Virus record (IMG/VR): IMGVR_UViG_3300028179_000157
Strand: one strand, 5' to 3'
DNA: 64,000 nt
Origin: an uncultured virus (IMG/VR IMGVR_UViG_3300028179_000157)
Taxonomy: Duplodnaviria; Heunggongvirae; Uroviricota; Caudoviricetes
Shown: positions 1 through 28,751 of the stretch, in pieces
Numbering within the stretch: the stretch's first letter is position 1
Layout: every line of letters starts with the position of its first letter
Notes under the pieces: generated by a model
Told to the model about the DNA's origin: nothing
The model's database searches: none
What the model saw: only the letters and a program-made list of their open reading frames with translations
Position numbers and translations under genes: made by a program

Positions 1-2220
1 AACGAGCGCAACTTGATCCCGCAACTGGAGGCATGGCTGCGCCGCGTACTTGTGCGCTGGTTGATCCCCGGCTTCCAGTTGACCGACGACATGTACTTCG
101 GTGCAATGTTTGCGGCAATCGGTGCGAACATCCCCGGCAAGCTCATGGCGATCCGTGATGGCAATGCGCACACGCGCTATGCCCACAGCTTCCATATCCG
201 TGAGTTCCTGGCCAGCCACGGCAAGCTGGACACGTTCATCGATACGCTGACCAAGAAGCAGATGCTCTGGCTGTATCGCAACATCCGCTACATCGAGCGC
301 AATCCTGGTAAGCAGGAAACCTTCGATGACCTGCTACAGAACCTGCTGACCGAACGTGGCATCCCGCTGGCCAAGTGGGACATCCGTCATGATCTGGAAG
401 AACAGCCTGAAGATATCGCCCCGACTCCGCGTCTGTTCCGTACGGCGCTGAACTTCGGCTTCAACCAGACCGGCGATGATGTACGCACGGTTGGTCGCAT
501 GCTCGATGCTGAGCAGCCTGCGGCAAAGGATAACGCAGCCATCCAGGGCTACGAGGAACCACTGATCATTGAAGCCATTGAAACGGCAGCAATGGACAAG
601 TTCCCGACGAAGGTACTTGAATCGGCCATGCTGGATCTGACCGACTCGATGCCTTTCACGCTCTCGGACACGCTGCTCAACCACTGGATCTTCTGGGGCA
701 ACAACGAGCGCTACTCGCCTGTCATCACCGTGCCTGATCCCCGCTCGGGTGAGGGTGTTCGCATGACGGTGCGCAATGCGTTCATCGTTTACCTGTGGGC
801 CTACAACAAGGCTCGTGGCGTTGACCTGATCCGTCTGCCCAAGCTGGAAGCGCGCCACATCCTGCGTGACCCTGCTCCGCGTCCTTCGGAGCTGTGGACC
901 ATCGTGGATCGCAAGTACGTCAAGGACAACATCGTAGAGGCGCTCTACGCTGGGCACCCGGACATGATTCCTGCCAAGATCATTTCCACCGTGACCTTCT
1001 ACGAGGCCTGCCAGGACATCTTCAACTACACCATGCACCAGCGCGACGTTTACGCAGCGCAGGAGCACGAGATGACCCGCGGCATGACCGAGGCGCTTGC
1101 GCACCGGTTCTTCTACAACGTCCCCGTCGACTTCGGCATCAATCTGTACTACGAGGATTGGCTGACCGAGAACAACTACCTGATCCACGACTACAGCGTC
1201 CTGGAACTGGATCTGTTGGCTACCAACATCCTGCGTGCGGCAACCGGGATGGATAGCACCAACACCAAGTCGGCAAAGGAATTGCAGCAGGCGATGATCT
1301 CGCTGATGGAGCAGCTGTCCAGCTACGCCATCCAGTTCATTTCCTCCATCAACTCCGATGCACTGAAGATGGCAGACTTTGCTGTCATCCGACTGGGCGA
1401 TGACTACACCTCCGCAGGTGACGTCACGGATCTGTCCAAGCTGGCAGTGCGGGTGCTCAGTGCTGACACGTTGGCTCGACATGAAGTTGAGTACGACATG
1501 GTCGGGGACATGGTTGAGTTTGATGTAAGCTCCACCAAGTACCACGAGCTGAGCACTGACATGTCTGTCGGCTTTGAAGGTGGTGTGCAACGCGAGGTCA
1601 CCGAGAACGTGGATGTTCTCAACGTGCGCTTCTCCGTTGTGCAGGAACCGTCCAAGACGCTGGCAAGTCAGATCACCAGGACCACGCTGAGCGCCTTTGC
1701 GACCACTGCCCGCTTCACCGCGGGTAACTATCTCAAAGATGACAGCAACCCGTTGTTGGCAATGCCCAATGGTTGGTCGGTGATTCGCCGCATGAACGAT
1801 GACAACACCGCAGCAGTGTATCCCCATAATGCCACAGTCGCTCGTACGGGTGTGGTGGGTAGCAATGCCAAGGTGCTGGTGACCGCTGTTCCTCCGCGTA
1901 ACACCGCAGAGCTGGAGCGCTACACCGGAGTCATCGAACTGCAACTGCCGCTGTTGGATCTGGCAACGTACTTCACTGGCGCTAACCTGCGTTGGGATGG
2001 TAGTGTTCGCCCGATGGACGTCTACGAGGTTGTGGACTGGCTCAATCGCAAGTACGGCATGGAGCTGTCGCGTGATGAGTTCAACTACGTTGCTATCGCC
2101 ACCAATGCAACCACGGTGACGATGACAGCCTCGGCCAAGAGCATGCGACTGAAGGGGAGTTTCACTGTCCAAATTCCGGCCAGTGGCTTCCTGAGTAAGC
2201 TGACTGAAATGTTTGGCTAA
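1..2220 (+). CDS. Virion structural (baseplate/tail) protein, 5'-truncated by the window edge
   Basis: Frame is open from base 1 to TAA at 2218-2220 with strong codon bias. The C-terminal ~130 aa resemble the N-module of the downstream paralog array. Context is a tail gene cluster. Confidence 0.75.
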   Translation, partial: NERNLIPQLEAWLRRVLVRWLIPGFQLTDDMYFGAMFAAIGANIPGKLMAIRDGNAHTRYAHSFHIREFLASHGKLDTFIDTLTKKQMLWLYRNIRYIERNPGKQETFDDLLQNLLTERGIPLAKWDIRHDLEEQPEDIAPTPRLFRTALNFGFNQTGDDVRTVGRMLDAEQPAAKDNAAIQGYEEPLIIEAIETAAMDKFPTKVLESAMLDLTDSMPFTLSDTLLNHWIFWGNNERYSPVITVPDPRSGEGVRMTVRNAFIVYLWAYNKARGVDLIRLPKLEARHILRDPAPRPSELWTIVDRKYVKDNIVEALYAGHPDMIPAKIISTVTFYEACQDIFNYTMHQRDVYAAQEHEMTRGMTEALAHRFFYNVPVDFGINLYYEDWLTENNYLIHDYSVLELDLLATNILRAATGMDSTNTKSAKELQQAMISLMEQLSSYAIQFISSINSDALKMADFAVIRLGDDYTSAGDVTDLSKLAVRVLSADTLARHEVEYDMVGDMVEFDVSSTKYHELSTDMSVGFEGGVQREVTENVDVLNVRFSVVQEPSKTLASQITRTTLSAFATTARFTAGNYLKDDSNPLLAMPNGWSVIRRMNDDNTAAVYPHNATVARTGVVGSNAKVLVTAVPPRNTAELERYTGVIELQLPLLDLATYFTGANLRWDGSVRPMDVYEVVDWLNRKYGMELSRDEFNYVAIATNATTVTMTASAKSMRLKGSFTVQIPASGFLSKLTEMFG

Positions 2221-2260
2221 CGGCATAAGGGGAGGGGCTCGCGCCCCTCCCTCTATGTCC
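2221..2260. terminator. Bidirectional hairpin between convergent genes
   Basis: CGGCATA..GGGAGGGGC-TCGC-GCCCCTCCC..TATGTCC directly after the stop codon. Confidence 0.75.
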
Positions 2261-2278
2261 CCCTGCATCAGACGCTGA

Positions 2279-3325
2279 TTAGGTCAGCGGCTTGGACAGG
2301 GTGAAGTGGCCCAGCACACGAGCGGTGAAGACATCCTTGCGGATGGCCACAGCCGTCGCCGAGACCAGGTTGCCGAACAGGGCTTCCAGGTCCACCAGTG
2401 CCTGCAGCTTCAGGCCGTTGGCGCTGGCCGTCAGTTCGATGTCAGCCACCGACGGTTCGCCTTCGGTCACTTCCTCGCGCAGCAGGTACACGCCTTCTTC
2501 GACGTGCATCTTGAGGGTGACCTCACGGTCGCCGACAACACGCAGGCGGAAGTCGTACAGGCTGTCGATGGTCGCGCCGTCTTCCAGAGCGACCGGGTTG
2601 GCCACTTCGAAGAGCACCATGTACTTGGTGCCCGGCAGGACTTCGTGGCCGCCGTTGCTCCACTTGACCGGACCGTCCATGTTGGCGCCCACGCCGACGA
2701 TGGTTTCCTGGTTGGTGCCGACTTCGTAGAACACGTGGTCCACGATCGACGGATCCATGTCCGGATTGGTCAGCGACTCGGTGTAGGCGTTGAGCACCTT
2801 GCCGATGTGCGAGGGCTTGGCGGTCGGGTACTGGAAGCCGCGCAGCGTGGTGTGGGTGACGTAGCTCGGCAGCATGATCTTTTCAGCGATCAGCTCGACG
2901 GTCATTTCACCCAGGTAGACGTACGAACCCGGCTTGGCGCGCAGGGTCAGCGTGCCCGAGCCGAACTCGCCCGGATAGTCGCCGATGACTTCGACGTCGG
3001 TCGGTTCCAGCTGCAGGCCGTATTCGGCGTTGATCGCATCCAGCAGCGTGGCGTCGCTGATGACTTCCTTGGCGGAGAACTCGACTTCCTGGTCGATGAA
3101 CATGCGGTCCAGGAACAGGCGCTCGAAGCGCGTGGTGACCGGACCGTACCAGTAGCTGGTCGGCGAAGCGGTGACAGTACAAGCGGTATTGCGCTCGTCC
3201 TGGTTCAGGCTCAGCTGCACCGGAGCTGCGAAGATCAGCTCATCGAAGGTGAAGGTGGCGTCGTTGTCATCATTGATCAGGTCCAGGAGGAGTTCCTTGC
3301 CCGGCTTGTTCAAGTAATCGATCAT
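2279..3325 (-). CDS. Tail/baseplate-associated paralog 1 (phiKZ gp131-135-like family)
   Basis: N-module KPGKELLLDLIN...RLFLDRMF...INAEYG...LRGFQYP shared with neighbouring genes. Confidence 0.75.
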   Translation of the reverse strand: MIDYLNKPGKELLLDLINDDNDATFTFDELIFAAPVQLSLNQDERNTACTVTASPTSYWYGPVTTRFERLFLDRMFIDQEVEFSAKEVISDATLLDAINAEYGLQLEPTDVEVIGDYPGEFGSGTLTLRAKPGSYVYLGEMTVELIAEKIMLPSYVTHTTLRGFQYPTAKPSHIGKVLNAYTESLTNPDMDPSIVDHVFYEVGTNQETIVGVGANMDGPVKWSNGGHEVLPGTKYMVLFEVANPVALEDGATIDSLYDFRLRVVGDREVTLKMHVEEGVYLLREEVTEGEPSVADIELTASANGLKLQALVDLEALFGNLVSATAVAIRKDVFTARVLGHFTLSKPLT

Positions 3326-3402
3326 TTCTAGGTGCCTTTTCTGGGTGGAGCGGGGATGAGGAGACGCTCACATGATTCGCAAGCGGGGACTACTTTCTGG
3401 TG

Positions 3403-4560
3403 TTAGACGTAGAAGTTGACCGGGAAGTCGATGAAGAAGTCCGGCTTGTTCGGGTTGCGGCGATGCTTCAGCTTCAGGCGGAAGATCATTGCGCCACCGC
3501 GATACCACGAGGTCGAACCACCGCCGGTAGCCGAGATGTAGTTGACACCAGCCTGCGTACGAGCCACATGCGGGTAGGAACCAGCAGCCGGCTGAGCGCC
3601 CAGCCCCACAGCCATGGAAACGCGGAAGGTGGCGGCGGGGGTGATGGTGGTACGCAGCGGATAGAGCAAACCGGAGTCGCTCTTGAACGGTGCGGAGGTT
3701 CCGACCTGATCAGCCAGGGACAACTTCATTTCCGGACCCACGCCAGCTGCGCCGATCTCGATGATGCTGACGTCGTAGTCTTCCAGGATCTGCGAGTTCT
3801 TCAGAGCAACGCCATCCTTGGACGCGGTGACCGTCACGGCTGCAGTGGAGGAGCCCTGGTTGCTATAACGCCAGGCCATCTGTCGCACGCCATCGGCGCG
3901 GTCCAGTACCTGATACGGCGTCTGCGGGCGAACGTTGCCACCCATGTCCAGCTCGATCGACAACTTCAGATCACCATAGTCCTTGATGAACGAGTTGTAG
4001 AAAGTACTGCCGGCCTGCCGTGTGGCGGTGGTCTGGATCGGATTGTTCGGCGAGGGGATATCGCTGTTCGGATAACCGAAGCCGTCCAGATCCGTGACCA
4101 GGAGGCGTGCCGCCAAGGGCATGCGTTCCAGATCAACGAAGACGTCGAATTCGCCAGTGTAGGCGAGATTGTCAGCCTTGGCCTTGACCTTGTAAAGTTC
4201 CGGGAGATCGCCGTCTTCTTGGGGGATGACGTCAAACTCACGCACATCAAACTTCGTCCCGTAGGTGAAGTTGAGGTGGCAGATGATATCCGAAGCAGTC
4301 GCGCCCTTGGGGACAGACACTTCGGCCATCTGGCCGCTGAACACCGTGAGCAGATCGAGTCGGGAGAAATCGACATCGACGTCACGGTTCCAGGGTGAAT
4401 CAGGCGCGGCCTTCAGGTTGAGCAGGGTGTTGCCTTCAGCAGCACCACCTTCGGGAAGTCCGAAGATCAACTGATCTTCGGAGATCTCGGTCTCGTTCTC
4501 CTGATTGACGAGGTCAAGGATCAACTCCTTGCTCGTCTTGGCCAGGGGACAGACTTCCAT
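3403..4560 (-). CDS. Tail fibre/adhesin-like paralog 2
   Basis: MEVCPLAK start with GGAGAG RBS; conserved N-module ending ERMPLAARLLVTDLDGFGYP; divergent C-domain. Confidence 0.8.
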   Translation of the reverse strand: MEVCPLAKTSKELILDLVNQENETEISEDQLIFGLPEGGAAEGNTLLNLKAAPDSPWNRDVDVDFSRLDLLTVFSGQMAEVSVPKGATASDIICHLNFTYGTKFDVREFDVIPQEDGDLPELYKVKAKADNLAYTGEFDVFVDLERMPLAARLLVTDLDGFGYPNSDIPSPNNPIQTTATRQAGSTFYNSFIKDYGDLKLSIELDMGGNVRPQTPYQVLDRADGVRQMAWRYSNQGSSTAAVTVTASKDGVALKNSQILEDYDVSIIEIGAAGVGPEMKLSLADQVGTSAPFKSDSGLLYPLRTTITPAATFRVSMAVGLGAQPAAGSYPHVARTQAGVNYISATGGGSTSWYRGGAMIFRLKLKHRRNPNKPDFFIDFPVNFYV

Positions 4561-4593
4561 CAAACTCTCCTACTACTTAAAACGTGGAGGGGA

Positions 4594-5709
4594 TCAGCGG
4601 AACGCGGTACGCGTCACGACGATTTCCTTGGAGCGCTTAGTCTTGTGCTTACCACGCAGGGTAGCGATCAGCAAGCCGGTCGTACCAGCACTACCGCCGC
4701 CGCCACTGCCGCGGGACATGCCCAGGGTGATCATGCGCGGCTGGATATGGTTCTGAGCGGCCTGGCTGAAGTCCCACTCGAAGTTGAAGCCGGCCGTGGA
4801 GCGATAGCCGGCGAGCGTGCCGCCAGTGACGTCCATGCCGAGCGTGACGCCTTCCCCCTGCCAGGCAACCTGGCCATTGGGCTGAACCACCGGAAGCAGC
4901 GTGACCTTACCGCGAGTGGAGGCCATCTCCAGGGAGAAATCGTACTCGGCCATCAGCTGGACAAGCGAGCGCTGATCGCTGGCCGTGACAGCCGCCACCA
5001 GATGCGGGAAGCGATAGCTGCCGCTGCCGACGGGACTGCCCACGCCCAACGCTGCGCCTTGCGGATCACCGCTGACCATCGTCGGGTAGTTGACCGGGAA
5101 ACCGCGCACTTCGATTTCCAGCTTCACATCGCCGTTGTCACCGAAGCGGTTCTGCAGGTTGTTGACGATCGGGCTGTCGGTGTAGATGACGTTGTTCATC
5201 GACGGGACGTCAGCGTTCGGATAGTGGAAGCCATCCAGATCGGTCTGTAGGATACGCGCAGCCAGTGGCATGCGCTCCAGGTCCACGAACAGCGGGAACT
5301 CGCCGGTGTAGGCCAGGTTGTTGGGCAGAGCGCGCAGCTTGTACGGCTCGGGGATGCCGCCGTCTTCCTGCGGCAGCAGTTCGAACTCATCCACCTTGAA
5401 CGACATGTCGTAGGTGAAGTTGAGGTGACAGATGATGTCAGCCGCCGTGGCGTCCTTGGGCACCGACACCGACACGTCCTGACCGGCGAACAGCGTTGCC
5501 AGATCCAGACGATCGTAGACGACATCGACGAAGGAGTTCCAGGGGGAATCCTCGGCCGCGGCTACGTTCAGACCCGTGTTGCCATCTTCCGTGCTGGCAG
5601 TGGGGAGGCCGAAGACCAGCTGCTCTTCGGTGATGGTGGAACCGTTCTCGGAGTTGATCAGTTCGAGGATCAATTCCTTACCGGGTTTTGCAAGAGGACA
5701 GACGTCCAT
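4594..5709 (-). CDS. Tail fibre/adhesin-like paralog 3
   Basis: MDVCPLAK N-module; divergent C-domain. Confidence 0.8.
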   Translation of the reverse strand: MDVCPLAKPGKELILELINSENGSTITEEQLVFGLPTASTEDGNTGLNVAAAEDSPWNSFVDVVYDRLDLATLFAGQDVSVSVPKDATAADIICHLNFTYDMSFKVDEFELLPQEDGGIPEPYKLRALPNNLAYTGEFPLFVDLERMPLAARILQTDLDGFHYPNADVPSMNNVIYTDSPIVNNLQNRFGDNGDVKLEIEVRGFPVNYPTMVSGDPQGAALGVGSPVGSGSYRFPHLVAAVTASDQRSLVQLMAEYDFSLEMASTRGKVTLLPVVQPNGQVAWQGEGVTLGMDVTGGTLAGYRSTAGFNFEWDFSQAAQNHIQPRMITLGMSRGSGGGGSAGTTGLLIATLRGKHKTKRSKEIVVTRTAFR

Positions 5710-5803
5710 CTAAGTACCTGCTGTGGTGGGTGAAGCGTGGAGAGATTAACCGGTGGACCTTCCTTGGTCCTAGGTATGGGCGGGTAAGAACGAGGTGATG
5801 CTA

Positions 5804-6964
5804 TCAGACCGCGGTGGCGGCAGCCTGGATTTCCAACGTCTTGGCACGACCAGCCTTGCGAACTGCCCAGAGACGGTACTCCATCATGCCGGTCAGTTTG
5901 GTCGAACCCTGGCTCAGTCCCGGCCAGATGTTGGTGTTGCGATCAAGCGACATCGCATGCGTGCCATCACGCGGAACAGTGGTGAAGGCCCCGCGACCGA
6001 AGTTGTTGGGTCCATCGACCTGCCAGAAACCAGCCGTGTTGTAGTTCGAGGCGCCGGGAACATCACTGTCACGACGGTACTTGAAGGTACGAACCTGCCA
6101 CTGTTGAGAGGCACTCGCGCGCGAGCGAGTTTCCATGAAGACATCGTAGTCTTCGATCAGCTCGACCACCGTCTTGCCGACGTAACGCAGGCCGACGAGC
6201 ACGTTCCAGCTGGCTGCCTGCGTCAGGTTGCCATTGGTCTCCTGCCAGGTGGTAAGACGACGCGGTTCGCCGGCAGGCCCGTACTTGACGCCGATCGGGT
6301 AACGCGATTGCTGCCAGCCGCCGTTGGTATTGGAGGTACGCAGACCCAGGACAACCTCGGAGTTCTCACCACGATCGTAGCCGAGCTTGTTGTCCTGAGC
6401 GCCGCCATCATTCCACGCGCCGTCGACGTCCTTGAAGAACACCGGGTTGTTCAGCGACGGGCGGTCAGCGTTGGGGTACATGAAACCATTCAGATCCGTC
6501 TGCAGGATACGAGCCGAGAGCGGCATCCGTTCCAGATCGACGAACACATCGAAGGTGCCGCCGTAGGCCAGGTTGTTGTCGAGGGCTTCGACCTTGTACA
6601 ACTCGGGCAGGTCGCCGTCTTCGACCGGCGTCACCTTGAACTCGGTAACGTCGAACTTGGTGCCGTAGGTGAAGTTCAGATGACAGATGATGTCAGCCGG
6701 CGTTGCGCCCTTCGGAACGGAGATCTCTGCGCGTTCACCATGGAACAAGGTGTTCAGGTCGAGACGATCGTAGTCCACGTCCACGAAGCTGTTCCACGGC
6801 GAATCGGGCGCCGCGGTAAGATTCAGTCGGGTGTTCTGCTCGGAATCGGTGGACTGCGGTTCACCGAAGATGAGCTGCTCTTCGGTAATCGCCGAGGCGT
6901 TCTCGGCATTCACCAGTTCGAGGATCAGCTCCTTGCCAGTTTTGGCAAGAGGACAAACTTCCAT
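5804..6964 (-). CDS. Tail fibre/adhesin-like paralog 4
   Basis: MEVCPLAK start at 6964 with GGAG RBS; divergent C-domain. Confidence 0.8.
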   Translation of the reverse strand: MEVCPLAKTGKELILELVNAENASAITEEQLIFGEPQSTDSEQNTRLNLTAAPDSPWNSFVDVDYDRLDLNTLFHGERAEISVPKGATPADIICHLNFTYGTKFDVTEFKVTPVEDGDLPELYKVEALDNNLAYGGTFDVFVDLERMPLSARILQTDLNGFMYPNADRPSLNNPVFFKDVDGAWNDGGAQDNKLGYDRGENSEVVLGLRTSNTNGGWQQSRYPIGVKYGPAGEPRRLTTWQETNGNLTQAASWNVLVGLRYVGKTVVELIEDYDVFMETRSRASASQQWQVRTFKYRRDSDVPGASNYNTAGFWQVDGPNNFGRGAFTTVPRDGTHAMSLDRNTNIWPGLSQGSTKLTGMMEYRLWAVRKAGRAKTLEIQAAATAV

Positions 6965-6976
6965 CAGATTCTCCAA

Positions 6977-8932
6977 TTACGCGAGTGGATTGGTGCGGAG
7001 GTTGAATTCCATGTACAGAGGCTGTCCGCCCTTCTTCGGGGTCAGGGTCATCTTGACAACAACGAGCCCATGAACACGAGTGTAGGTGGTGCCGTTTGCG
7101 GTCTGCTGCCAGCGCGCCATGCCGGGGAACCAGGCATTGTTGGGAGACGGTGCCACCGAGATGGTGACCGCCGCAGCCGTATCCGGCGTAGGCAGGGTAA
7201 CGATCTGACTACCGACAACAGCGCCGTTCTGGTCCAGGAACTGCAAGATACGCGGTGCCGCCGGATCAGCACGCATGGTGCCGGACTTGATGGTCGGCTG
7301 AATACCCGCCTGACCCGAGGAGAACTCCCACGTACCGTCGTACTCGTCAAGGACCATCTGCGCATTGAACGGCTGGTTCTTGCGAGTGGACGCCATGCCG
7401 AAGACGATGAGCAGACTCTGGACAGGCGCTACGGCCGACTTCGCCTGATCGTAGGTGTGGTAGGTGATCGACTCATTGCCAGACAGGGTATTGCGCAAGT
7501 CTGAGCGGTTGACACTTTCACCAGCGAGTTGAATCGTTCTGCGGCCGAACGTGTACAACATCACCTTGCCGTCGTCAACGGTCTTGCCGCCCCGCAGATA
7601 CAGTGCGTTGTTGGCAGGGGTGGTGTGACCCGTCATGCCCAGCATGTTCTGACGATCGCCCCATGCAGGATTCTCGTCAATGACGATACCCACCTCAGGC
7701 GTTGTACGGAACTTGTACTCCAGACGAATCGGATCGGCCGGACCTTCCTTGCGAACCATCTCCAGGACCATCTTGCCGCGGCCACGGACTCGCGTGGTGA
7801 TCACAGAGTTGACAGTCTTGGAGATCGACCGCATGGCGGGAAGGGGCTCAGCGGGACCGGGGTAGAAGTCCGCCATGAGGTATCTGCCACCCTGCGCATT
7901 GGTACGCCCGGAACCCTGACGACGCGCGGCACCGGCGGCTGCGGTGGCCGCATCCGGTACGATGAAGAAAGAGTCAGCGCGATTCGGATCAACAGCGAGC
8001 GTGTAGACGCAGGTGACCTCGTCGTAGCCATGATGGGAACTGACAGTCGTCAACTTGATGTCGTACAGATCCAACAGTTCACTGGCGGTAGCCAGAGTGG
8101 TGGTACGATCAGCATGCATGAAACCGATACTGGGGAACATGCCGCCGCGAGGCGTGTTGGTGTACGCGTCGGGTTGTTCGACGATGTACTCGCCAGTCTC
8201 CTCATCGAAGGCATGCTTGAAGTTGGTGAAGTTCCGCGTCACGTCCTGACCAGGAACCCACTTCGCAGCGCCCACGGCAAGGAAGGCTTCGAACTCACCA
8301 TTATTGGCAGTGACAAAACCACTCATCCAACCCTGTTCCTGCTGCGCAGCCGGCGGCGGCGAATAGGAACCAATGGAAAGGAACCCACGGTAGTCGCTAT
8401 TGCTGTCGTAGTACACGTTGGTCAGGGTGGGCGGGCGATACGGGTAGCGGAACCCGTTGAGGTCAGTGACCAGCAGTCGAGCCGACAGAGGCATCCGCTC
8501 CAGATCCACAAAGAGATCGAAGGCGCCCGTGTAAGCCAGATTGTCGTCCTTGGCAGTGATGCGGTAGACCTCAGGGAGATCCCCGTCCTCGATGGGCGTC
8601 ACTACGAACTCGTTGACGTCGAACTTCATCCCGTAGGTGTAGTTCAAGTGACAAACGATATCCGAAGGAGTGGCACCTTTGGGTACGGAGATCTCCGGGC
8701 GTCCTGCGCCGAATACAACACCCAGGTCCAATCGGGTGTAGTCGAGATCAACAGAGTTGTTCCACGGTGCATCGGGAGCAGCGGCGAGATTGAGGGTCGT
8801 GTTGCCCTCAGCTGCGCCGTCTTCAGCAGTGCCGAAGATCAACTGCTCCTCTGCAATCGTGGTCTCGTTGGTCTCGTTGACCAAGTCAAGGACAAGCGCC
8901 TTGCTGGTTTTTGCGAGAGGACAGACCTCCAT
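6977..8932 (-). CDS. Tail fibre/adhesin-like paralog 5 (two tandem C-domains)
   Basis: MEVCPLAK N-module; 651 aa; C-region about twice the length of its siblings. Confidence 0.8.
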   Translation of the reverse strand: MEVCPLAKTSKALVLDLVNETNETTIAEEQLIFGTAEDGAAEGNTTLNLAAAPDAPWNNSVDLDYTRLDLGVVFGAGRPEISVPKGATPSDIVCHLNYTYGMKFDVNEFVVTPIEDGDLPEVYRITAKDDNLAYTGAFDLFVDLERMPLSARLLVTDLNGFRYPYRPPTLTNVYYDSNSDYRGFLSIGSYSPPPAAQQEQGWMSGFVTANNGEFEAFLAVGAAKWVPGQDVTRNFTNFKHAFDEETGEYIVEQPDAYTNTPRGGMFPSIGFMHADRTTTLATASELLDLYDIKLTTVSSHHGYDEVTCVYTLAVDPNRADSFFIVPDAATAAAGAARRQGSGRTNAQGGRYLMADFYPGPAEPLPAMRSISKTVNSVITTRVRGRGKMVLEMVRKEGPADPIRLEYKFRTTPEVGIVIDENPAWGDRQNMLGMTGHTTPANNALYLRGGKTVDDGKVMLYTFGRRTIQLAGESVNRSDLRNTLSGNESITYHTYDQAKSAVAPVQSLLIVFGMASTRKNQPFNAQMVLDEYDGTWEFSSGQAGIQPTIKSGTMRADPAAPRILQFLDQNGAVVGSQIVTLPTPDTAAAVTISVAPSPNNAWFPGMARWQQTANGTTYTRVHGLVVVKMTLTPKKGGQPLYMEFNLRTNPLA

Positions 8933-8947
8933 CTTTGTTTCCTCAGA

Positions 8948-10126
8948 TTACTGCGCGAAGAGCGCGGTGCGATAGATCAGTTCGATCGGCTTGGCCAGGC
9001 CTTTCTTGCGAGTTGCGGTGAGCTTGAAGGTCACCATACCCGTGCAGCAAGCCGGTCGCTGCGTCGTGCCAGGGATAGCCATGGTGGATGCTGTCAAGCT
9101 ACCGAACATGCCGGTCGGCGTGTAGGGGATACCGATGGTCGCTTCATAGCCAGTGACGCCGTTCTGAATCTTCTGGACCAGGTCGATACGCTGGCCGTCA
9201 GTGAACTCGACCCGCAGCCTGGTCCCAAACCGAATGACCTTACTGCTGCGGATGACGCCGCCGCCACCATTCAAGGCGCTCACGGTCATTTCCATCGCAA
9301 TGTCGTAGCCGTCGAGCAGATGTTCAAAATTGCCCTGTTCAGCCTTGAGCCCCATGAAGAGGCTAAGTACTGGCGCGTTGCGATAGATCGTGTTGTTGTA
9401 CAGTGCGCCCGTGCTTGTGCAGGTGTAGTACGGAGGGTTTGCGCTGGCGGAGTAACCAGCCGCCTGGAAGATGGCGGCGTTGTTCGTCGATGCCGACCAG
9501 CTGGAACGACCGCCCATGAACATTTCATCGTTCTCGGCGATTTCGAACCCATTCCGATTGCCAGTGGGCATGTGGCCAAACGCCCACGTTGCGGGCATGG
9601 TTTTGTTGTGAGAGACGACGACGTCACCACCGGCATTGTAGCCGAAACCATTCAGATCGGTCACCGTCAGTCGAGCCGACAGGGGCATGCGATTGAGGTC
9701 TGCAAAGACATCGACCGAACCGATGTAGGCCATGTTGCCAGCTTTCGCCGTAACCTTGTAAAGTTCCGGCAGCTCACCATCCTCCTGGGGAACAACGTCG
9801 AATTCATTGACGTCAAACTTCAGGTCGTAGGTGAAATTGAGATGACAGATGAGATCGGCGGCGGTAGCACCTTTGGGCAGGGACACCTCCGCGCGCTCGT
9901 TGTGGAACAACGTGCCCAGATCGAGACGATCGTAGGACGTATCCACAAACGAGTTCCAGGGCGCGTCAGGCGCTGCCGTGAGGCGGAGGGCAGTGTTACC
10001 GCCTTCCAGGCTCTCTTCCACTTCGCCAAAGATCAACTGCTCTTCGGCGATATTGCTCGAATTCTCCTGGTTGACCAGATCGAGTACGAGCAGTTTGCTG
10101 GGCTTTGCCAACGGGCAAACGTCCAT
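8948..10126 (-). CDS. Tail fibre/adhesin-like paralog 6
   Basis: MDVCPLAK start at 10126 with AAGGAG RBS. Confidence 0.8.
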   Translation of the reverse strand: MDVCPLAKPSKLLVLDLVNQENSSNIAEEQLIFGEVEESLEGGNTALRLTAAPDAPWNSFVDTSYDRLDLGTLFHNERAEVSLPKGATAADLICHLNFTYDLKFDVNEFDVVPQEDGELPELYKVTAKAGNMAYIGSVDVFADLNRMPLSARLTVTDLNGFGYNAGGDVVVSHNKTMPATWAFGHMPTGNRNGFEIAENDEMFMGGRSSWSASTNNAAIFQAAGYSASANPPYYTCTSTGALYNNTIYRNAPVLSLFMGLKAEQGNFEHLLDGYDIAMEMTVSALNGGGGVIRSSKVIRFGTRLRVEFTDGQRIDLVQKIQNGVTGYEATIGIPYTPTGMFGSLTASTMAIPGTTQRPACCTGMVTFKLTATRKKGLAKPIELIYRTALFAQ

Positions 10127-10136
10127 GGTCTTCTCC

Positions 10137-11339
10137 TTACGATGCGATGGCGTCGGTGATGATCTCAATCACCTTGGCGCGGCCGGTCTTGCGGGTCAGG
10201 GTCAGCTTGGTCTTGATCTGACCGCGGTAGATCGACATGTTCGTCCCGTTGACAGTCGTATTGGTGACCCGCATGCCGGGGAACAGCGCTTGGTTGCTGC
10301 TGTCGGTCCGGAACTTGTAGGTGGTCTTACCCGACCCGGAGTTGCTCAGGTTGCCGATGACGACGCCGGTATCCTTGTTGACCAGACGCAGGCGCGTGGC
10401 ATCGGTGGGCAGGTATTCGACCCGGCACGTAACCTTCTTCTCGCCCGAGCCATTCGGGAACGCCGTCGTGACCTCCAGTTCGACATCGTAACCCTCCAGG
10501 ATATCCTGGAACTTGTTCTGCTCGGCGGTCAGCTGGAAGCCGAAGGCAACCTGCCAGCTTCGAGCATAACCGAAGTTACTGTGCGAACCGGTGGCGGTAC
10601 TGATCGGGTAGACGCCATCTGCATTCGGGTCAACGCCAGTGCCGCCGGTGGTATCCCAGCCACCCCTGGTATTGAAGGCACGCACGAACGCCACCACCTC
10701 GCCGTTCTTGGCGAAGTTGAAACCCTTGCGGTTGTCGGCGATGCCGCTCGAAACAATGGCCGCAAAATGACCATCCGGAGCCAGGGCATTGCGTTCGAAG
10801 ATGATGTTGTTCAGGGACGGCGTGTTGGCGTTCGGATAACCGAAGCCATCCAGATCCGACTTGGTCAGGCGGTCGCTCAGCGGGGAGCGGGTCAGGTCCA
10901 GGAACAACGCCACCTGGCCGATGTAGCCCAGCGAGTTGGGCACCGCCTTCAGGACGAACTCACCGGGGATATTGTCGGCCGACGGAGCCGGGGAGATTTC
11001 CATCTCCAGGTTGGAAAGACGCGTGTCGTACTCGGCATTGATGCGCGAGATGATGTCTTCCTTGGAGGCGCCCTTGGGCACTGCCAGCTCGACCCCGCCA
11101 CCGAAGTAGCGATTCAGGTCGCGGCGATGGTAGTCGACCTTGACGCTCTTGTTCCAGGGGGCATCCGGATCGGCGATGACTTCGGTACGAGTGTTGGCGT
11201 CGCTGCCTTCGATCGGTTCGGCCAGACTGTTGGGCAGGCCGAAGTCGATCTGCTCGCGCTCGATCGTACTTTCGTTTTCACTGTTGATCAGATTCAGCAA
11301 CAACTTGTCGCTGGTCTGAGGCTGTTCATTTTCGCTCAT
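10137..11339 (-). CDS. Tail fibre/adhesin-like paralog 7
   Basis: N-module (LLNLINSENE...PDAPWNKSV...DLDGFGYP) without the Cys residues. Confidence 0.8.
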   Translation of the reverse strand: MSENEQPQTSDKLLLNLINSENESTIEREQIDFGLPNSLAEPIEGSDANTRTEVIADPDAPWNKSVKVDYHRRDLNRYFGGGVELAVPKGASKEDIISRINAEYDTRLSNLEMEISPAPSADNIPGEFVLKAVPNSLGYIGQVALFLDLTRSPLSDRLTKSDLDGFGYPNANTPSLNNIIFERNALAPDGHFAAIVSSGIADNRKGFNFAKNGEVVAFVRAFNTRGGWDTTGGTGVDPNADGVYPISTATGSHSNFGYARSWQVAFGFQLTAEQNKFQDILEGYDVELEVTTAFPNGSGEKKVTCRVEYLPTDATRLRLVNKDTGVVIGNLSNSGSGKTTYKFRTDSSNQALFPGMRVTNTTVNGTNMSIYRGQIKTKLTLTRKTGRAKVIEIITDAIAS

Positions 11340-11390
11340 TTGAACGACTCCATTAGTGGGCTGAGTGGATTGATCGTATCCCTCCTAGGA

Positions 11391-11432
11391 CATAGGATTG
11401 GTCTTTATAAAACGACGCCACCCAATCTTATG
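11391..11432. promoter_or_regulatory. Candidate divergent late promoters (inverted CCAATC(C/T)TATG)
   Basis: CATAGGATTGG at 11391-11401 and CCAATCTTATG at 11422-11432 within an AT-rich divergent intergenic region. Confidence 0.5.
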
Positions 11433-11490
11433 GCTACCACGAAAACATCAACTCATTGATGCTTTCTTTTCCCCTTAACGGAGTCCTTGC

Positions 11491-12573
11491 ATGCATAGCC
11501 AGCCTCCCTTCCCACGCGGTGGCAATCAGCCCCCTGGGAACTTTCCGGATCAAGACAGTTGGAGCGCGGCCCCGCCGGTACATGGACGTCGGCCTCCTGC
11601 ACATGGTCACCACGATCCGCACAATCATGGCCACTCGCACCCGCGCCCTGATCACCGGCACTACGAGCATTTCCCGCATCAGCATCGCCACCCTGAAGCG
11701 TGGCAGTGCCCCGAGCCGATCTTCCCGTACAACAAACCGGGCAAGCATGTCCTGATTGATCTGATCAACCGGGCCAACGAAACCGACTTCTCTCCTGATC
11801 AGCTTGAACTGAGTGCACCGGCCGCACTTGGCAACACGCTGACCCAGGTGCACATCACCCCGACGCAGAAGACCGGGTGGTGCAGCAGCGATACCTTCAC
11901 CTACCATCGCATGTTGATGGAGGCGTATCTGGGCAAGACCCACATCAACCTGCATGTGGACGCCCGGATGACCAAGGAAAGCGTCGCCCAAGCCATGCGT
12001 GATCGTTACCGCATCTGGCTGGACATGGAAGACTTCGACGTGGACTTCTCCAACTGCCCGCCGAGTTGGCTGCAGCGTGGTCATTTCCTCGCGCGCCTGC
12101 GCTTCCGTCCGAACTGCCTGGTGTGGATCGGTGCAATGGAAGTGGTCCTGATCCCGGACAATCGTCTCAGTGCGATGATCTGCGTCACCGATCTTTCCGG
12201 CTTCATCTATCCAGACCATCTCGGTGGACAGGGTCGCAAGCAACTGGCCGAGTCGTACTACCAGGATTTGGAAGGCACCATCCTCTTCCAAAACCTGTTG
12301 AAGTATCGTGTCGGTGAACCGGTGCGTACCCACGACGGCAAGTGGCGCGATGGCACGCGACTGACTGGCGACTTCTGGATCTCTTCCCCGCAGGAAGTTG
12401 AGTTCAATGTCTCCGGCGCTCGCATCCTGTACAACGGTCGCAATGATGGTCCGTGGCACTGCGGCTGTGATGACTACAGCCATGTACTGGTGATCGAGCT
12501 TGGCCCGCTGTGCAAGAACCTGCGCGGCAAGCTGGTCATCCCCTACGACGTGCGTCGTGAGAAGCCTTACTAA
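11491..12573 (+). CDS. Virion structural protein with His/Pro-rich N-tail and the shared N-module
   Basis: NKPGKHVLIDLINRANE...DLSGFIYP module follows ~75 aa of His/Pro-rich sequence; GGAG RBS. Confidence 0.75.
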   Translation: MHSQPPFPRGGNQPPGNFPDQDSWSAAPPVHGRRPPAHGHHDPHNHGHSHPRPDHRHYEHFPHQHRHPEAWQCPEPIFPYNKPGKHVLIDLINRANETDFSPDQLELSAPAALGNTLTQVHITPTQKTGWCSSDTFTYHRMLMEAYLGKTHINLHVDARMTKESVAQAMRDRYRIWLDMEDFDVDFSNCPPSWLQRGHFLARLRFRPNCLVWIGAMEVVLIPDNRLSAMICVTDLSGFIYPDHLGGQGRKQLAESYYQDLEGTILFQNLLKYRVGEPVRTHDGKWRDGTRLTGDFWISSPQEVEFNVSGARILYNGRNDGPWHCGCDDYSHVLVIELGPLCKNLRGKLVIPYDVRREKPY

Positions 12574-12648
12574 GCCTCTGTAGAGAATTACCTCTAGCAC
12601 GCTATCGTATAGCGCGACTTACGTCAAAACGAACAAAGGTATTCCCAC

Positions 12649-13509
12649 GTGAAAATCATTACCCGTACTGGCTACGGCTGCCTGCGTCAGACCGAGCTGC
12701 TGATCGGCAAGCCCTACAAGGCGCTGCCCAACAGCACACTCAACGAGAAGTTCGAAGTACAGGCCAACGTGGTCCCCGAAGCTGGCAAGATACCCTACCT
12801 TGGCTACTACAGCATCGGTCAGGGTGGTCACCGCAACGAGACCGGCGCCGATGGCTTCCCGCTGACCAGCCCGATCGACCATCGTCCCACCGACGCTGGC
12901 CTGTTCCGCTTCCTGCCGTTCGTCTTGCGTGAGCTGACCAACGACCTGGACAGCGGCGCCCGCAGTCGCTATGCGATGCGCAAGATCATCCAGGTGGATG
13001 GCCGCAACTACGTGGCGTACTACCTGAAGAAGATCCCGATGGACTCGGTGTCCCCGGACATCTACTACAACCGTGTGGTCGATGGTCAGGTCACCACGAC
13101 CCCGTTCCGTCCGGACAACAGCAACCTCAACCCGACCCCGCCGGAGATCCCCAACACCGGCACCGTCACCACCTCGGGCGACTACCTGTCCGTGTCGGCG
13201 ATCCTGCCGCTGGACTTCACCGCCAACGACGTGGCCGAGCTGGTCAACGCGATCCGCATCCTGTACAAGGACGAGCGTTACGCGGTGATCTCGGAAATCG
13301 CCATGGTCACTGCATCGGCCAAGGTTGTCACCGGTCCGGGTCCGGGTAACACCACGATCCAGTACGAAGAAGCAGTGGCTGCACAGATCGCCGCCCACAT
13401 GACCGGCCACTACCCGGTGGGCTTCACCAACATGGGCTTCAACCTGAAGGTGAACCTGGGCGCGACCGAGCCGATGTTCAAGCCGTCGGCTGTTACCACC
13501 GGTAACTAA
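12649..13509 (+). CDS. Conserved jumbo-phage virion structural protein
   Basis: 286-aa ORF with very strong codon bias; lies just upstream of RuvC, as recalled for phiKZ-like phages. Confidence 0.65.
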   Translation: MKIITRTGYGCLRQTELLIGKPYKALPNSTLNEKFEVQANVVPEAGKIPYLGYYSIGQGGHRNETGADGFPLTSPIDHRPTDAGLFRFLPFVLRELTNDLDSGARSRYAMRKIIQVDGRNYVAYYLKKIPMDSVSPDIYYNRVVDGQVTTTPFRPDNSNLNPTPPEIPNTGTVTTSGDYLSVSAILPLDFTANDVAELVNAIRILYKDERYAVISEIAMVTASAKVVTGPGPGNTTIQYEEAVAAQIAAHMTGHYPVGFTNMGFNLKVNLGATEPMFKPSAVTTGN

Positions 13510-13526
13510 TCCAGCGAGGTTCTCTT

Positions 13527-14147
13527 ATGCTGGTGATGCCGGATCGAGGTAGGGAGTACCGGGTGCTCGGAGTCGACCCCGGTGGTTTCTGTCTAGGTGC
13601 AGCAATCTTGGAGATCAACTTCGAGACCTCTACCGTTGAGGTCATCCACGCTGATACTGTCCATACCGGCAATGCTGATGTCCGATACCCCGTGTTGCAT
13701 GAAGTGCACGGGGGTCGGGTTCCTCGACATCGAATGCTGGAGGACGAGATTGCTTGCCTCCTGCGCACATTCGAACCCAATGCGGTGATTTCCGAATCGC
13801 CGTTTATGCGCAAGTTTGCCAAGGTCTTCCATGCGCTGATCGAATGTGTTTACCTTCTCCGTTTCGCACTGCGACAGTTTGATGAATACATCCCGCTGTT
13901 GGCAGTGGATCCTCCATCGGTGAAGATGGCTGTGGGCGGTACTGGTAAGAGCGATAAGGACGCAATGAAGCGTCTGGTTTGCAAAGTACCTAATCTTACC
14001 TTTGCCGAGGGCATCGATTACGATTCACTGGATGAACATTCCGTGGACGCAATTGCTATCGCCTACTGCCACTGCGCACACCTGCTAGGTTGCGCTAGAG
14101 AGGTTAAACCCAATGAAAATGCGCGACGCCGTAAAGGTCGTCGGTGA
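13527..14147 (+). CDS. ruvC: Holliday junction resolvase RuvC-like
   Basis: VLGVDPG, ISESP, P..VK.AV.G.G.S.K, DEHSVDAIAIA catalytic acidic motifs. Confidence 0.9.
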   Translation: MLVMPDRGREYRVLGVDPGGFCLGAAILEINFETSTVEVIHADTVHTGNADVRYPVLHEVHGGRVPRHRMLEDEIACLLRTFEPNAVISESPFMRKFAKVFHALIECVYLLRFALRQFDEYIPLLAVDPPSVKMAVGGTGKSDKDAMKRLVCKVPNLTFAEGIDYDSLDEHSVDAIAIAYCHCAHLLGCAREVKPNENARRRKGRR

Positions 14148-16415: not shown

Positions 16416-19331
16416 TTATTTCCAGATGAGGGTGCCGGGTCTGCTGGGCAGTCCGCCACTGACGGGGATACCTTGGCCGCATGGTGCAATCGACAGTCTG
16501 CCACCACCGTAACCAATCACCTTGTTCATCATCAGCCGCTCGATGGCTGAGCCGTTGGTAATGATCGTGCCGATGTGCATCCGCTGAGCGGTATCGGCAT
16601 ACTTGGTCTGGGTGATTTCATATCCCGGACGAGGGACAGTGACCGCGTAGACGTGGAACGTCTTGTTTGCGGGGTTAGCGATGACGTCTGCCAAGTTGAA
16701 CGAAGCTGGCTGGAGTTCATAATAACGTCCGCCCAGCACCAACGGTTCGACCTGATTGAACGAGACGGTCCACGCCGAGGCCATCTGTGCGCTGGCCAAC
16801 ACGATCCACTTGGTGCGATCTTGTTCGATTGCCCAGTTCTTCATCATCTCAGCATTACTGGCCACAGGGGCGAGCAGCGCCTTGGTAACAAAGTCAGCAT
16901 CACCGTTGGTGTCAATCATCTCACACAGACCAACGCCAGCCAGCGCCACGATGCCACGCAGGTTGGGCGCGGAGTTGGAGCGACGTGCTGCCCAGTAGGT
17001 GCCATCGACCACCTTGCCATCGGAACGACGCAAGGCAAAGCGAGAATCGAAGATCGCCGCTGCGCCTGAGTTGTTGTGGCTGTTGGCCATGCGCAAACCG
17101 ATCAGGTAAGTATCGGCCGTCTGGTAGGCTTGGAAATAAGCCGACCTGCGGGAGATGTCCTGCACACCGATGGTGTACGTGCTGGGTCCACCGGCTACTC
17201 GCACGCTACCAATCAGATCCTTCAGAGTCGGAGTGATAGCATTGAATCGAGCAGAGTTTAGCGTCCATGCATAGACCCACGTGCTGCCGTCCTCAAATAC
17301 CACCGGGACGTTCAGGATGGGAGGCAGGTCCGCCATCTCAGTTGTGATGATCTCCAACGCCATGGAGCGAGGCACATTCGGAGCCATGGCTGCCACAACA
17401 GCCAGTCGCAGGTTCTCCAGCGGACCGGATGCGATGTTGATGGGGATGGATGCCGTCCCATCGGCCGCCAAACGCATCATACCGCCACCGCGCAGTCCGT
17501 TGGCTATCACGCCAAGGCTCGTGGTGACCGTGCCGTTGGTGGCCACTACGGAGGCGGGATAGATGGTGTCCTGATAATGGTCAACAACATCACTCACGAA
17601 CATTCGACGCGTGCTCGGAGCAAAGCCGGTGTAGCTGCCATTGTAGAGCGACTTGTAGGTGAAGCCACTCGCCCCGATGGAGAACAGGGCGTGAGCGGCC
17701 GTACTCTGGCCATCGTTCCGACGTCCGAAGCTGTGGACCAGCCAACCCGAGGGAATCGGAACAGGGGAGCTGTTGAACTGACCCAGTGCCGATGGTGCAG
17801 GCGGATAGGAGTTGTCGCCAGTTGCCCACTGCGTACGCGGGCAGGTCATCGGCAGGTAGCCATTGACCTTCGGGCTATTCGGACCAGCTGCAGACTTGCC
17901 GCGGTTGAAGCGGTTCGGACTGAACTGGTAGTAGCCGTCGGTGAACACGTAGACCGTGCCATCATCTGCCACCGTGAGCGATGCCTGCTGATCGCTGTCC
18001 CCGTAGCCGAGATACTCGCTGTTGGGCATGGTGTACGTCGGACCACTGACCGTAGCAGTATCGGCAATGTCACTGACGATAACCTTGGCCGGGGGATTGT
18101 CAGGCAACGACCCAGCACCAGCCTTCACTTCGAAGTGAGACGACGTCGGGGTCAACGTGAGCTCGTATTCGAAGTTGAACCGGTGAGTGAGGAAGCCGGA
18201 GAAGTTGGTGATGCTGGTACGCCGCACCCCTCGGAAGCATCCCTTCACCTTGCCCGAGACCGGGTCGTAGATCGAGAAGATCGAGGGACGATGATTGACA
18301 CCCACGAACGGGCGCAACGTATCGCGAGCACCGGGGCAGTGGAAGAACGGCTTGTCCGACACCACCCTGGAAGCGATGCACTCGGTGAGACGATGGATGT
18401 TGGCCGGCGTACCAGCGCGAGGCGTTTCGCCGTACAGATCCTTCGTCGTGCAGTTGGCGATGCGGATGGGCTCAACCAGCGCCTGATTGCCCGCGGAGAA
18501 TGCGGCGATCGGGAAGAAGTGAACAGCGAAGTCCAGCTTCTGGTTCTGGTTGTCGCGCACGTCAGCCATCGTGAGGACGTAGACTCCCTCAGGCTTCAGG
18601 ATGCACTCGCCACGATGCAGGTAGTCGCCAAACCACGTCGGGTCGATCAGGATGCCACGATGATTGGCTCCGAAGATCGAACCATCCATCAGCGAGATGA
18701 AGCACTCACCAAACTCGCCAGTGGCCAGGTTCTGCACCTTACCTGCGATCACACCAGCGCCGCCCTGGAACACGTAGGCGCTCGTCTTACCTGCCGGGAA
18801 GTACGGAGCCTTGTAGCGGTTGTTGGTGTAGATCATCGTGCCGCGTGCGGCCGTGGAGGCGTCTTCGCTGTAGCAGAGGAACGCGCCGATGTTACCGCCG
18901 TCCGTACCGTTGCGAATCAGAGCGACCGAACCATCCGGCTCCACGTTCATCACCGACCAGCGAATCTCCTGATAACGGAAGGCTGCTTCGAAAGCACCCG
19001 AGGTATCAATCGGGTACTCGTTCTGTCGACCGAAGCTGATCACCGGACATGCGTCCGCGGGCAGGGTCGTCTCCAGAGCCGACAGGAGCGTCGGCTTGTC
19101 GTAGGAACCCACCTGCGCGGCAGTGACACCGTGCGGGTTGTTGGTGCGCCCTGAGTGCGCCATGAAGCGTTCTACGAAGGCGTAGTACCAATCCGTGAAG
19201 ACGTTGCCGCCAAGATTGGTAGTGTCATCCGAAGTGATCGCACCATTGGGTTTGAGCTTGGACTTTGCGATAGCGGATGCGAGGAAGGCATCCAGCTTCG
19301 CTCGCATTGCCGCCAATCCTTTCGTACTCAT
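16416..19331 (-). CDS. Large tail fibre/baseplate protein (phiKZ gp145/146-like)
   Basis: 971 aa; NPHGVTAAQVG motif; paralog of the upstream gene. Confidence 0.75.
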   Translation of the reverse strand: MSTKGLAAMRAKLDAFLASAIAKSKLKPNGAITSDDTTNLGGNVFTDWYYAFVERFMAHSGRTNNPHGVTAAQVGSYDKPTLLSALETTLPADACPVISFGRQNEYPIDTSGAFEAAFRYQEIRWSVMNVEPDGSVALIRNGTDGGNIGAFLCYSEDASTAARGTMIYTNNRYKAPYFPAGKTSAYVFQGGAGVIAGKVQNLATGEFGECFISLMDGSIFGANHRGILIDPTWFGDYLHRGECILKPEGVYVLTMADVRDNQNQKLDFAVHFFPIAAFSAGNQALVEPIRIANCTTKDLYGETPRAGTPANIHRLTECIASRVVSDKPFFHCPGARDTLRPFVGVNHRPSIFSIYDPVSGKVKGCFRGVRRTSITNFSGFLTHRFNFEYELTLTPTSSHFEVKAGAGSLPDNPPAKVIVSDIADTATVSGPTYTMPNSEYLGYGDSDQQASLTVADDGTVYVFTDGYYQFSPNRFNRGKSAAGPNSPKVNGYLPMTCPRTQWATGDNSYPPAPSALGQFNSSPVPIPSGWLVHSFGRRNDGQSTAAHALFSIGASGFTYKSLYNGSYTGFAPSTRRMFVSDVVDHYQDTIYPASVVATNGTVTTSLGVIANGLRGGGMMRLAADGTASIPINIASGPLENLRLAVVAAMAPNVPRSMALEIITTEMADLPPILNVPVVFEDGSTWVYAWTLNSARFNAITPTLKDLIGSVRVAGGPSTYTIGVQDISRRSAYFQAYQTADTYLIGLRMANSHNNSGAAAIFDSRFALRRSDGKVVDGTYWAARRSNSAPNLRGIVALAGVGLCEMIDTNGDADFVTKALLAPVASNAEMMKNWAIEQDRTKWIVLASAQMASAWTVSFNQVEPLVLGGRYYELQPASFNLADVIANPANKTFHVYAVTVPRPGYEITQTKYADTAQRMHIGTIITNGSAIERLMMNKVIGYGGGRLSIAPCGQGIPVSGGLPSRPGTLIWK

Positions 19332-19346
19332 CTTTCACCTTTCTGT

Positions 19347-22280: not shown

Positions 22281-22357
22281 GTTTTTACCTAGTTGCTGAA
22301 ATAGAAAGATAAGGGCTCTCTGCCCGATGCATAGCATCAGACAGAGAGCGAGACTTA

Positions 22358-23086
22358 TCAGCGTATCCAAAGGCTACTGAGTGCGGTCGGGTCCATGGGC
22401 ATGCCTTCAGTGCGAGGAATTGCACTGCCAGATGGAGTCTGGGATACGGTGAAGGTGTCCAGGCGCTGTCTCGCCGTCCCGAAGGAAGCGGTGATATTGC
22501 CGGAGTTGTCCGCCCGTACGGTAGCCATGTACATTCGGTTGAGTGATTCGCCGAGCTTTTCCGGGGTACAGACGTAGACGGGCGATCCTTCGCTCATCGA
22601 AACGTAGACGTTGACGTCCTTGCCTGCGTAGTCTGCCAGTGATCCGAAGATCTGACTCAGACGCAGGGTCGTCGCTCCGATGGAGAAGAAACGACCCAAC
22701 ATCAGAACCGACTGTGACCGGATGGTGAACTGATCCCCAGAGTAAGGCCAGATCAACAACGTGGATGTTGCTGTCCCCAATCCCACTGCTGAGATAGGAA
22801 GAATGCCAGATGGGATCAACCCAGCCAGCAACGCATCAACCTCACCGATGCTGTAAGCTCCAATTGCCGCTGCCGTGTCACCGTGAGGATTGCTCCTGTT
22901 GGTAATGTGAGCATTCTGCGTGGCATCACTGTCCGTAGTGAGCTTTGCGAGAGTGGAGCCTTCCAGCGTGTCTGCGTTATCCGACGCAAAGGCGGCGGCC
23001 CTCTTGGCCGCCGCCAGCTTGTTGATAGCCGTTGGAATACGATCAATGGCGTCCTGCAGGTCTTGCAAGTCCTGTTCTCTACTCAT
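22358..23086 (-). CDS. Short paralog of the two large fibre proteins
   Basis: NPH motif, PSGILPIS and the C-terminal GSAIP..G.P domain, without the central region. Confidence 0.7.
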   Translation of the reverse strand: MSREQDLQDLQDAIDRIPTAINKLAAAKRAAAFASDNADTLEGSTLAKLTTDSDATQNAHITNRSNPHGDTAAAIGAYSIGEVDALLAGLIPSGILPISAVGLGTATSTLLIWPYSGDQFTIRSQSVLMLGRFFSIGATTLRLSQIFGSLADYAGKDVNVYVSMSEGSPVYVCTPEKLGESLNRMYMATVRADNSGNITASFGTARQRLDTFTVSQTPSGSAIPRTEGMPMDPTALSSLWIR

Positions 23087-23103
23087 CGTCGTATCCCCTT
23101 GGA

Positions 23104-26310: not shown

Positions 26311-26329
26311 GATGACTCCGTGAAAGCTT

Positions 26330-26350
26330 GGCGGGAGGGTTACTCCCGCC
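26330..26350 (-). terminator. Intergenic hairpin between the fibre genes
   Basis: GGCGGGAG-GGTTA-CTCCCGCC. Confidence 0.5.
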
Positions 26351-26367
26351 TAACCGGATGAAAGAAC

Positions 26368-28635: not shown

Positions 28636-28751
28636 GGTGGACTCCAGCTATGCGTTGACGCTACCTAGGTTGTTAAAAATTACATGCACCATACCATAAC
28701 GGGACGGTCAAGCCTCTGAGGTATCGTATAGATTAGGCGAAGGAGCCAGTG

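Follow-up and report, generated by a model that had tools for sequence, protein, structure and literature searches.

The window analysed here, a stretch of 64,000 nucleotides from an uncultured virus of the Caudoviricetes (IMG/VR record IMGVR_UViG_3300028179_000157), is the start of a 129-kb virus record and contains, at positions 2279-11339, an array of seven tandem genes (g1-g7) for proteins with a DUF7941 module, all on the minus strand and with intergenic gaps of 10-94 bases. Among 50,697 phage records compared, the closest to the region 2200-12600 is that of Xanthomonas phage Xoo-sp14, with 81.5% nucleotide identity over half of the region, and a 234-kb contig rated 100% complete matches window positions 140-14000 without a difference. 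Based on the identity to Xoo-sp14 and on the phage RNA polymerase beta subunits encoded in the window, the carrier of the array is assigned by sequence to the phiKZ-like (chimallivirus-type) jumbo phages. The window also holds genes for a UvsX-like recombinase, an SbcC-like protein and RuvC.

Each array gene codes for 163-168 N-terminal residues matching DUF7941 (Pfam PF25613), followed by a C-terminal domain of 182-252 residues, which we refer to as the tip. All seven genes score above the Pfam cut-off (76-114 bits versus a cut-off of 27), and the matches begin at profile position 3 and end at about 176-191 of 276; the C-terminal domain typical of the DUF7941 family is replaced by the tip, and the linker is conserved. 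The first gene, g7 (10137-11339; Pfam E 3.9e-26), carries one tip (10140-10835). An earlier note on this DNA had the start of the array right but let it end at 10800, which truncates g7. The next genes are g6 (8948-10126, tip 8951-9637), g5 (6977-8932), which bears two tips in tandem (a, about 7688-8443; b, about 6980-7687), and g4 (5804-6964, tip 5807-6475), resulting in eight tips on seven genes. Divergent tips are found in g3 (4594-5709, tip 4597-5220) and g2 (3403-4560, tip 3406-4071), and the last gene, g1 (2279-3325), combines a divergent DUF7941 module with a short tip (2282-2827). Among g2-g6, the N-terminal halves are 58-73% identical, whereas the tips share only 20-31% identity.

The earlier note had proposed that these seemingly unrelated domains share one hidden scaffold, marked by a YD motif and, in most tips, by a basic C-terminal hairpin. 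The eight motifs and six hairpins it quoted are all present in the translations, and weaker hairpin versions absent from its list occur in g5a (VRKEG) and g1 (AIRK). A motif of the type hydrophobic-x2/3-YD-hydrophobic occurs once per tip, at residue 87-123 of each, and anywhere in 3-8% of shuffled tips (5000 shuffles per domain), a figure that overstates the significance, as the pattern was set after the sequences had been seen; YD by itself turns up in 20-53% of domains once they are shuffled. Within the motif only the Tyr, along with Gly205 elsewhere in the tip, is invariant over 28 aligned rows, and the Asp is substituted in several relatives. Independently of the motif, the common origin of the tips is argued from profiles from which the tip's own type was withheld and the shared linker trimmed. 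Scored in this way, the tips reach 105.7 (g7), 67.6 (g6), 64.6 (g4), 62.9 (g5b), 60.4 (g5a), 19.6 (g3) and 16.1 bits (g2), each above all of its 500 shuffles. By these leave-type-out profiles, the seven tips of g2-g7 are homologous. We regard membership in one family as virtually certain for the tips of g3-g7, as highly probable for g2 and as probable for g1, the evidence for which is given below. The similarity is only partly hidden, as plain phmmer already joins g4, g6 and g7 (E 1e-8 to 3e-16).

A search with the tip profile against 1.84 billion representative proteins returned 21 matches. Of these, 18 are array-type proteins, including a g5 that is truncated; the other three lack DUF7941 and contain a compact form of the domain, repeated two or three times, and one of the three matched 25 phage records. 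A profile built from 21 compact domains from outside the array matched the array profile at 97.7% and ranked g7, g5, g4, g6, g1 and g3 at the top among the 560 open reading frames (ORFs) of the genome, with g2 outside the top 14; since the compact seeds came via the g2-g7 profile, this ranking is independent for g1 only. No Pfam, PHROG or NCBIfam family covers the tip or the compact domain. The compact form was found in PAU gp9, named 'capsid decoration protein (banana)' in GenBank, in PA5oct EST35_0383, annotated as detected by mass spectrometry, in Yersinia phage fHe-Yen9 g099c and in Xoo-sp14 gp114, as well as in RTH11, LucasX, Lu11, HRDY3 and Brevundimonas jumbo phages. It is joined to DUF7941 in Xoo-sp14, RTH11 and LucasX, and the Xoo-sp14-type gene of this kind is retained in all four Xoo-sp14-like records searched; in Yersinia phages, one and the same anchor carries either the compact domain or Big_2 domains. 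For the PAU particle, an arch of density has been described, with gp9 not named in the accessible part of that account (Hua et al., PMC5646251).

The compact alignment also matches the PDB chains 8fwg_f1, 'Linking protein 1, gp16' (E 8e-16), and 9hz8_M (E 9e-16), which has the length of 7-7-1 gp122. Judged by two sequence steps, and for g7 directly by its predicted structure, the array tip is homologous to the C-terminal domain of linking protein 1 (LP1) of Milano and of gp122 of 7-7-1, both Agrobacterium phages. According to the available text, the Milano LP1 domain is an AlphaFold-predicted immunoglobulin (Ig)-type domain, unresolved in the structure, that extends from the capsid like Hoc and for which weak surface binding was suggested (Sonani et al., PMC10491603). 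The domain of 7-7-1 gp122 is placed, in the portion of that report at hand, under the capsid fibres that make the first contact with the flagellum (Noteborn et al., PMC12796354).

A single DUF7941-plus-compact gene orthologous to Xoo-sp14 gp114 is conserved about 20 kb from the array (L026 1489-2643; G001 83690-84826), with a short DUF7941-only gene close by on the opposite strand. Five uncultured proteins of 569-771 residues (P0022, P0024, P0025, P0026 and P0027) have an N-terminal region in common and contain the compact domain in two or three repeats; a family match was found for none of them. RTH11 contains 16 DUF7941 matches (W02, 161-169 kb and 82-88 kb), two with the compact domain and the remainder with other tips, a pattern by which the single-scaffold array seems to be particular to the Xoo-sp14 lineage.

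The beta-sandwich predicted by the earlier note is borne out for the one tip modelled. The model of the g7 tip (predicted local distance difference test score of 90.6) is an all-beta sandwich with large variable inserts, which superposes on Ig-like domains, and the predicted fold is therefore Ig-like. In g7 tip numbering, the Tyr strand is at 116-125, the basic hairpin at 215-222 and inserts are at 54-94 and 189-203; from general Ig topology, the two conserved elements would be expected at one pole of the sandwich and the inserts at the opposite one. For other tips the comparison is indirect, through library models of likely orthologues, with template modelling (TM) scores of 0.48 (g1), 0.46 (gp134) and 0.27 (g3). 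Across types, the framework blocks share 30-45% identity with g7 and the stretches between them 10-14%. The idea that variation is concentrated in hypervariable loops did not hold up: the variable stretches of the g7 model include predicted strands as well as loops, two framework strands are equally variable (9% and 15% identity), and there is no excess outside the framework in the ratio of nonsynonymous to synonymous substitutions (dN/dS). One library model of 543 residues, which is probably PAU gp10 (L015 4439-6070), resembles the g7 tip as well (E 0.0044, TM 0.47), without sequence support; gp10 is an 'internal capsid vertex protein' in GenBank and its gene adjoins gp9.

The main source of variation, overlooked by the earlier note, is the swapping of whole domains. 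In the sister phage L004, a g3-type N-terminal half (88% identity) is joined to a g2-type tip (65%), and in L007 a g2-type N-terminal half (80%), at the position of g2, carries a g4-type tip (86.5%). The N-terminal halves of g4 and g6 match Xoo-sp14 gp131 and gp134 (85% and 89%), while their tips are nearest to gp132 and gp133 (38% and 42%), and the slot equivalent to g6 bears a tandem tip in both Xoo-sp14 and L004. Likewise, Xoo-sp14 gp133 and its L004 orthologue are 94% identical in the N-terminal and 26% in the C-terminal half. N- and C-terminal halves have hence been re-paired among sister phages, and in all five sliding-window comparisons the parent changes at codons about 141-165, a hinge at the end of the DUF7941 match (6470-6544 when drawn for g4, minus strand). 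At the two end slots, g7 and g1, the tip type is the same in every sister phage compared, among them Xoo-sp14 and L004 for g7. Distant phages have tip types in common, whereas their N-terminal halves group by lineage in a tree with weak deep forks and flagged long branches; g4 and P0016, for instance, share 39% identity in the N-terminal half and 45% in the tip.

Purifying selection acts on the array, with dN/dS staying under 1 both within the framework and beyond it, although these values are pairwise averages in which selected sites can be hidden. The values are 0.09-0.24 for the N-terminal halves (12 orthologue pairs), 0.11-0.55 for the framework of the tips and 0.10-0.50 for the remainder (below 1 in seven of seven pairs), and 0.50-0.57 for the g1 tip (3 pairs); over their whole range of 0.10-0.57, the tips diverge faster than the N-terminal halves. 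Three of three other contigs are identical to the array over 9301 bases and may stem from one population. As judged from these comparisons, tip variation is made up of old divergence and whole-domain swapping at the hinge. A diversity-generating retroelement was considered and rejected: no reverse transcriptase (RVT_1) was found in three genomes, two of them 99-100% complete, in a search whose control matched in 3 of 14, and no near-identical pair of template and variable repeats occurs within 2200-11500, the stretch scanned. A shufflon or invertible cassette was rejected as well, as the same stretch holds seven whole genes on one strand and no invertible sites, the lone 18-nucleotide inverted pair lying inside g2.

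We propose that the tips are displayed, weakly adhesive domains on DUF7941 filaments, which are re-dealt by homologous recombination, a reading to which we give somewhat better than even chances. The array proteins would likely be subunits of thin head-to-tail virion filaments, joined by way of the DUF7941 linker in the manner of Goslar, and each would bear one or two copies of one predicted Ig-like domain, of which many divergent types now exist. An ancestral DUF7941-plus-compact gene, surviving as the single copy about 20 kb away, may have seeded the array. During co-infection, the N-terminal halves, with 60-72% identity, could offer the homology on which the UvsX-like/RuvC machinery of the phage itself recombines, so that exchange at the conserved hinge would change the slot, number and order of the tips. 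Displayed away from the particle in a Hoc-like manner, the tips might attach it to surface polymers such as glycans or flagella, and their variety would likely provide weak and diverse binding to host surfaces; the adhesin role already suggested in the earlier note is one that we infer. One might further speculate, tentatively, that a capsid-decoration Ig-like domain was turned into an antibody-like repertoire, in which eight variants with different ligands are carried on micron-long filaments and re-dealt between sister phages as hinge cassettes, so that the initial encounter with the host would draw on a heritable library of combinations.

Where on the particle such proteins sit is a point on which published placements of DUF7941 proteins conflict. 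As far as the accessible texts go, purified Goslar gp22 forms filaments, for which baseplate-anchored fibres with host-binding domains were proposed (Basu et al., bioRxiv 10.64898/2026.04.21.720040), phiKZ gp127 was docked in the outer (peripheral) baseplate (phiKZ atlas, PMC13250141), and the 20 proteins of SPN3US family B were assigned to the head because a tailless mutant retains them (Ali et al., PMC5694885). It is conceivable, if rather unlikely, that the array proteins have the same scaffold and swapping but decorate the head, as Hoc-like proteins or head fibres, rather than the baseplate. Seven of eight SPN3US proteins tested match DUF7941, and the characterised relatives of the tip are capsid decorations; the compact-domain gene of the Brevundimonas jumbo phage Kikimora (L018 4566-5501) lies two genes past the major capsid gene, a position that fits head decoration. 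On the other hand, the N-terminal module of the array matches the baseplate-modelled PHIKZ127, albeit weakly (E 0.015), and the SPN3US members scanned lack the tip, none of 52 ORFs in 28 kb scoring above 2 bits.

We consider it unlikely that the tips are structural parts, such as caps, spacers or partner-specific filament joints, that diverged through drift and functional specialisation, the swaps being neutral by-products of the repeated N-terminal halves. The dN/dS values below 1, the constant end slots and the tip types common to distant phages would all agree with such a role. However, the fast divergence of the tips relative to the N-terminal halves, their gain, loss and doubling and their presence on unrelated anchors are more in keeping with a displayed passenger than with a joint. 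That some tips, above all g1 and perhaps g2, are unrelated captured domains with a YD motif by chance is quite improbable. The g1 tip does score -1.0 bits against the leave-type-out array profile, with 78 of 500 shuffles as high, and only 0.5% in the HH profile comparison, and chance occurrence of YD is frequent. Against a compact profile enlarged by two further members, however, it reaches 8.0 bits, above all 1000 shuffles, a test that g2 and g5b fail; it aligns colinearly over 136 columns and four motifs, and its likely orthologue gives the structural match mentioned above (aligned range not shown), while g2 has its own leave-type-out score. The g1 tip is likely the same domain, nearer to the compact form. 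The earlier note's rejection of captured foreign domains is right in that the tips were not acquired one by one, but the domain does move between unrelated anchors in other phages. Lastly, an active diversifier (retroelement, shufflon or strong positive selection) driving loop hypervariation might explain the low identity of the tips within the genome, but is largely refuted, and scarcely credible, given the absence of its components, the identical contigs and the lack of a loop excess in dN/dS.

Next to the array, a full-length DUF7941 gene (11491-12573, plus strand, divergent to the array; profile positions 3-275 of 276, Pfam E 1e-50) is a candidate for a plain filament subunit by analogy with Goslar gp22. 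Its product has about 78 His/Pro-rich residues ahead of DUF7941, and the gene is retained in L004. On the other side, a large convergent gene (1-2220, plus strand, 5' end beyond the window) encodes a virion-type protein (phrog_3222) with a partial C-terminal DUF7941 match (residues 614-721, Pfam E 3e-9), the reverse of the usual order; that it serves as an anchor is a guess. Further away, at 16419-28647, two paralogous genes of 970-1010 residues (phrog_3573) probably form a separate tail-fibre set together with a repeat-rich tail-fibre gene at 26371-28647.

DUF7941 arrays as such are already published (SPN3US family B; Goslar 'fibre cloud'). The new elements are the shared descent of the tips and the identification of the domain they represent, and in a literature search that left out most subscription journals we found no paper linking them to one family or to LP1/gp122. 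This puts a name to an unclassified domain common to capsid decorations of small flagellotropic phages and to many jumbo phages, which here has multiplied and is exchanged as an attachment to DUF7941. Should the tips bind host surfaces, they would offer a naturally occurring set of eight small binders built on a single scaffold, with which to probe the 'fibre cloud' model of 2026, the conflicting placements of DUF7941 proteins and the binding function suggested for Milano LP1.

The Goslar 'fibre cloud' proteins and phiKZ gp126, gp127 and gp143 have the same N-terminal module and linker as the array, with paralogues bearing extra C-terminal domains in a chimallivirus-type genome. In the portion of the Goslar preprint available, the extra domains are described as carbohydrate-binding, glycoside hydrolase, leucine-rich repeat or unknown, and 'Ig-like' and 'immunoglobulin' occur 0 times, whereas the array tips form one family, which Goslar's grey 'unknown' domains could include. 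SPN3US paralogue family B resembles the array in its tandem DUF7941 paralogues found in virions, but differs, going by the accessible text, in its 20 members and head assignment, and shows no trace of the tip in the region scanned. Milano LP1 (gp16, 8FWG) and 7-7-1 gp122 (9HZ8) have the homologous 'Ig-type' domain as a single compact copy that a short arm with Cys links to the capsid; in the array proteins, this cross-linking arm is absent and the DUF7941 module stands in its place, the domain being eightfold and enlarged by inserts. The PAU, PA5oct, Yersinia, Xoo-sp14 gp114, RTH11, LucasX, Lu11, HRDY3 and Brevundimonas copies are of the compact form, with one or two genes per genome, varied N-terminal regions and no array. 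T4 Hoc displays Ig-like domains, and in gp37/gp38 of T-even phages a conserved stretch acts as crossover site for the exchange of distal parts. The array would work in a similar way, by likeness and with no sequence link found, but unlike in the T-even phages, swaps take place within a genome, between its seven paralogues, in addition to those from phage to phage.
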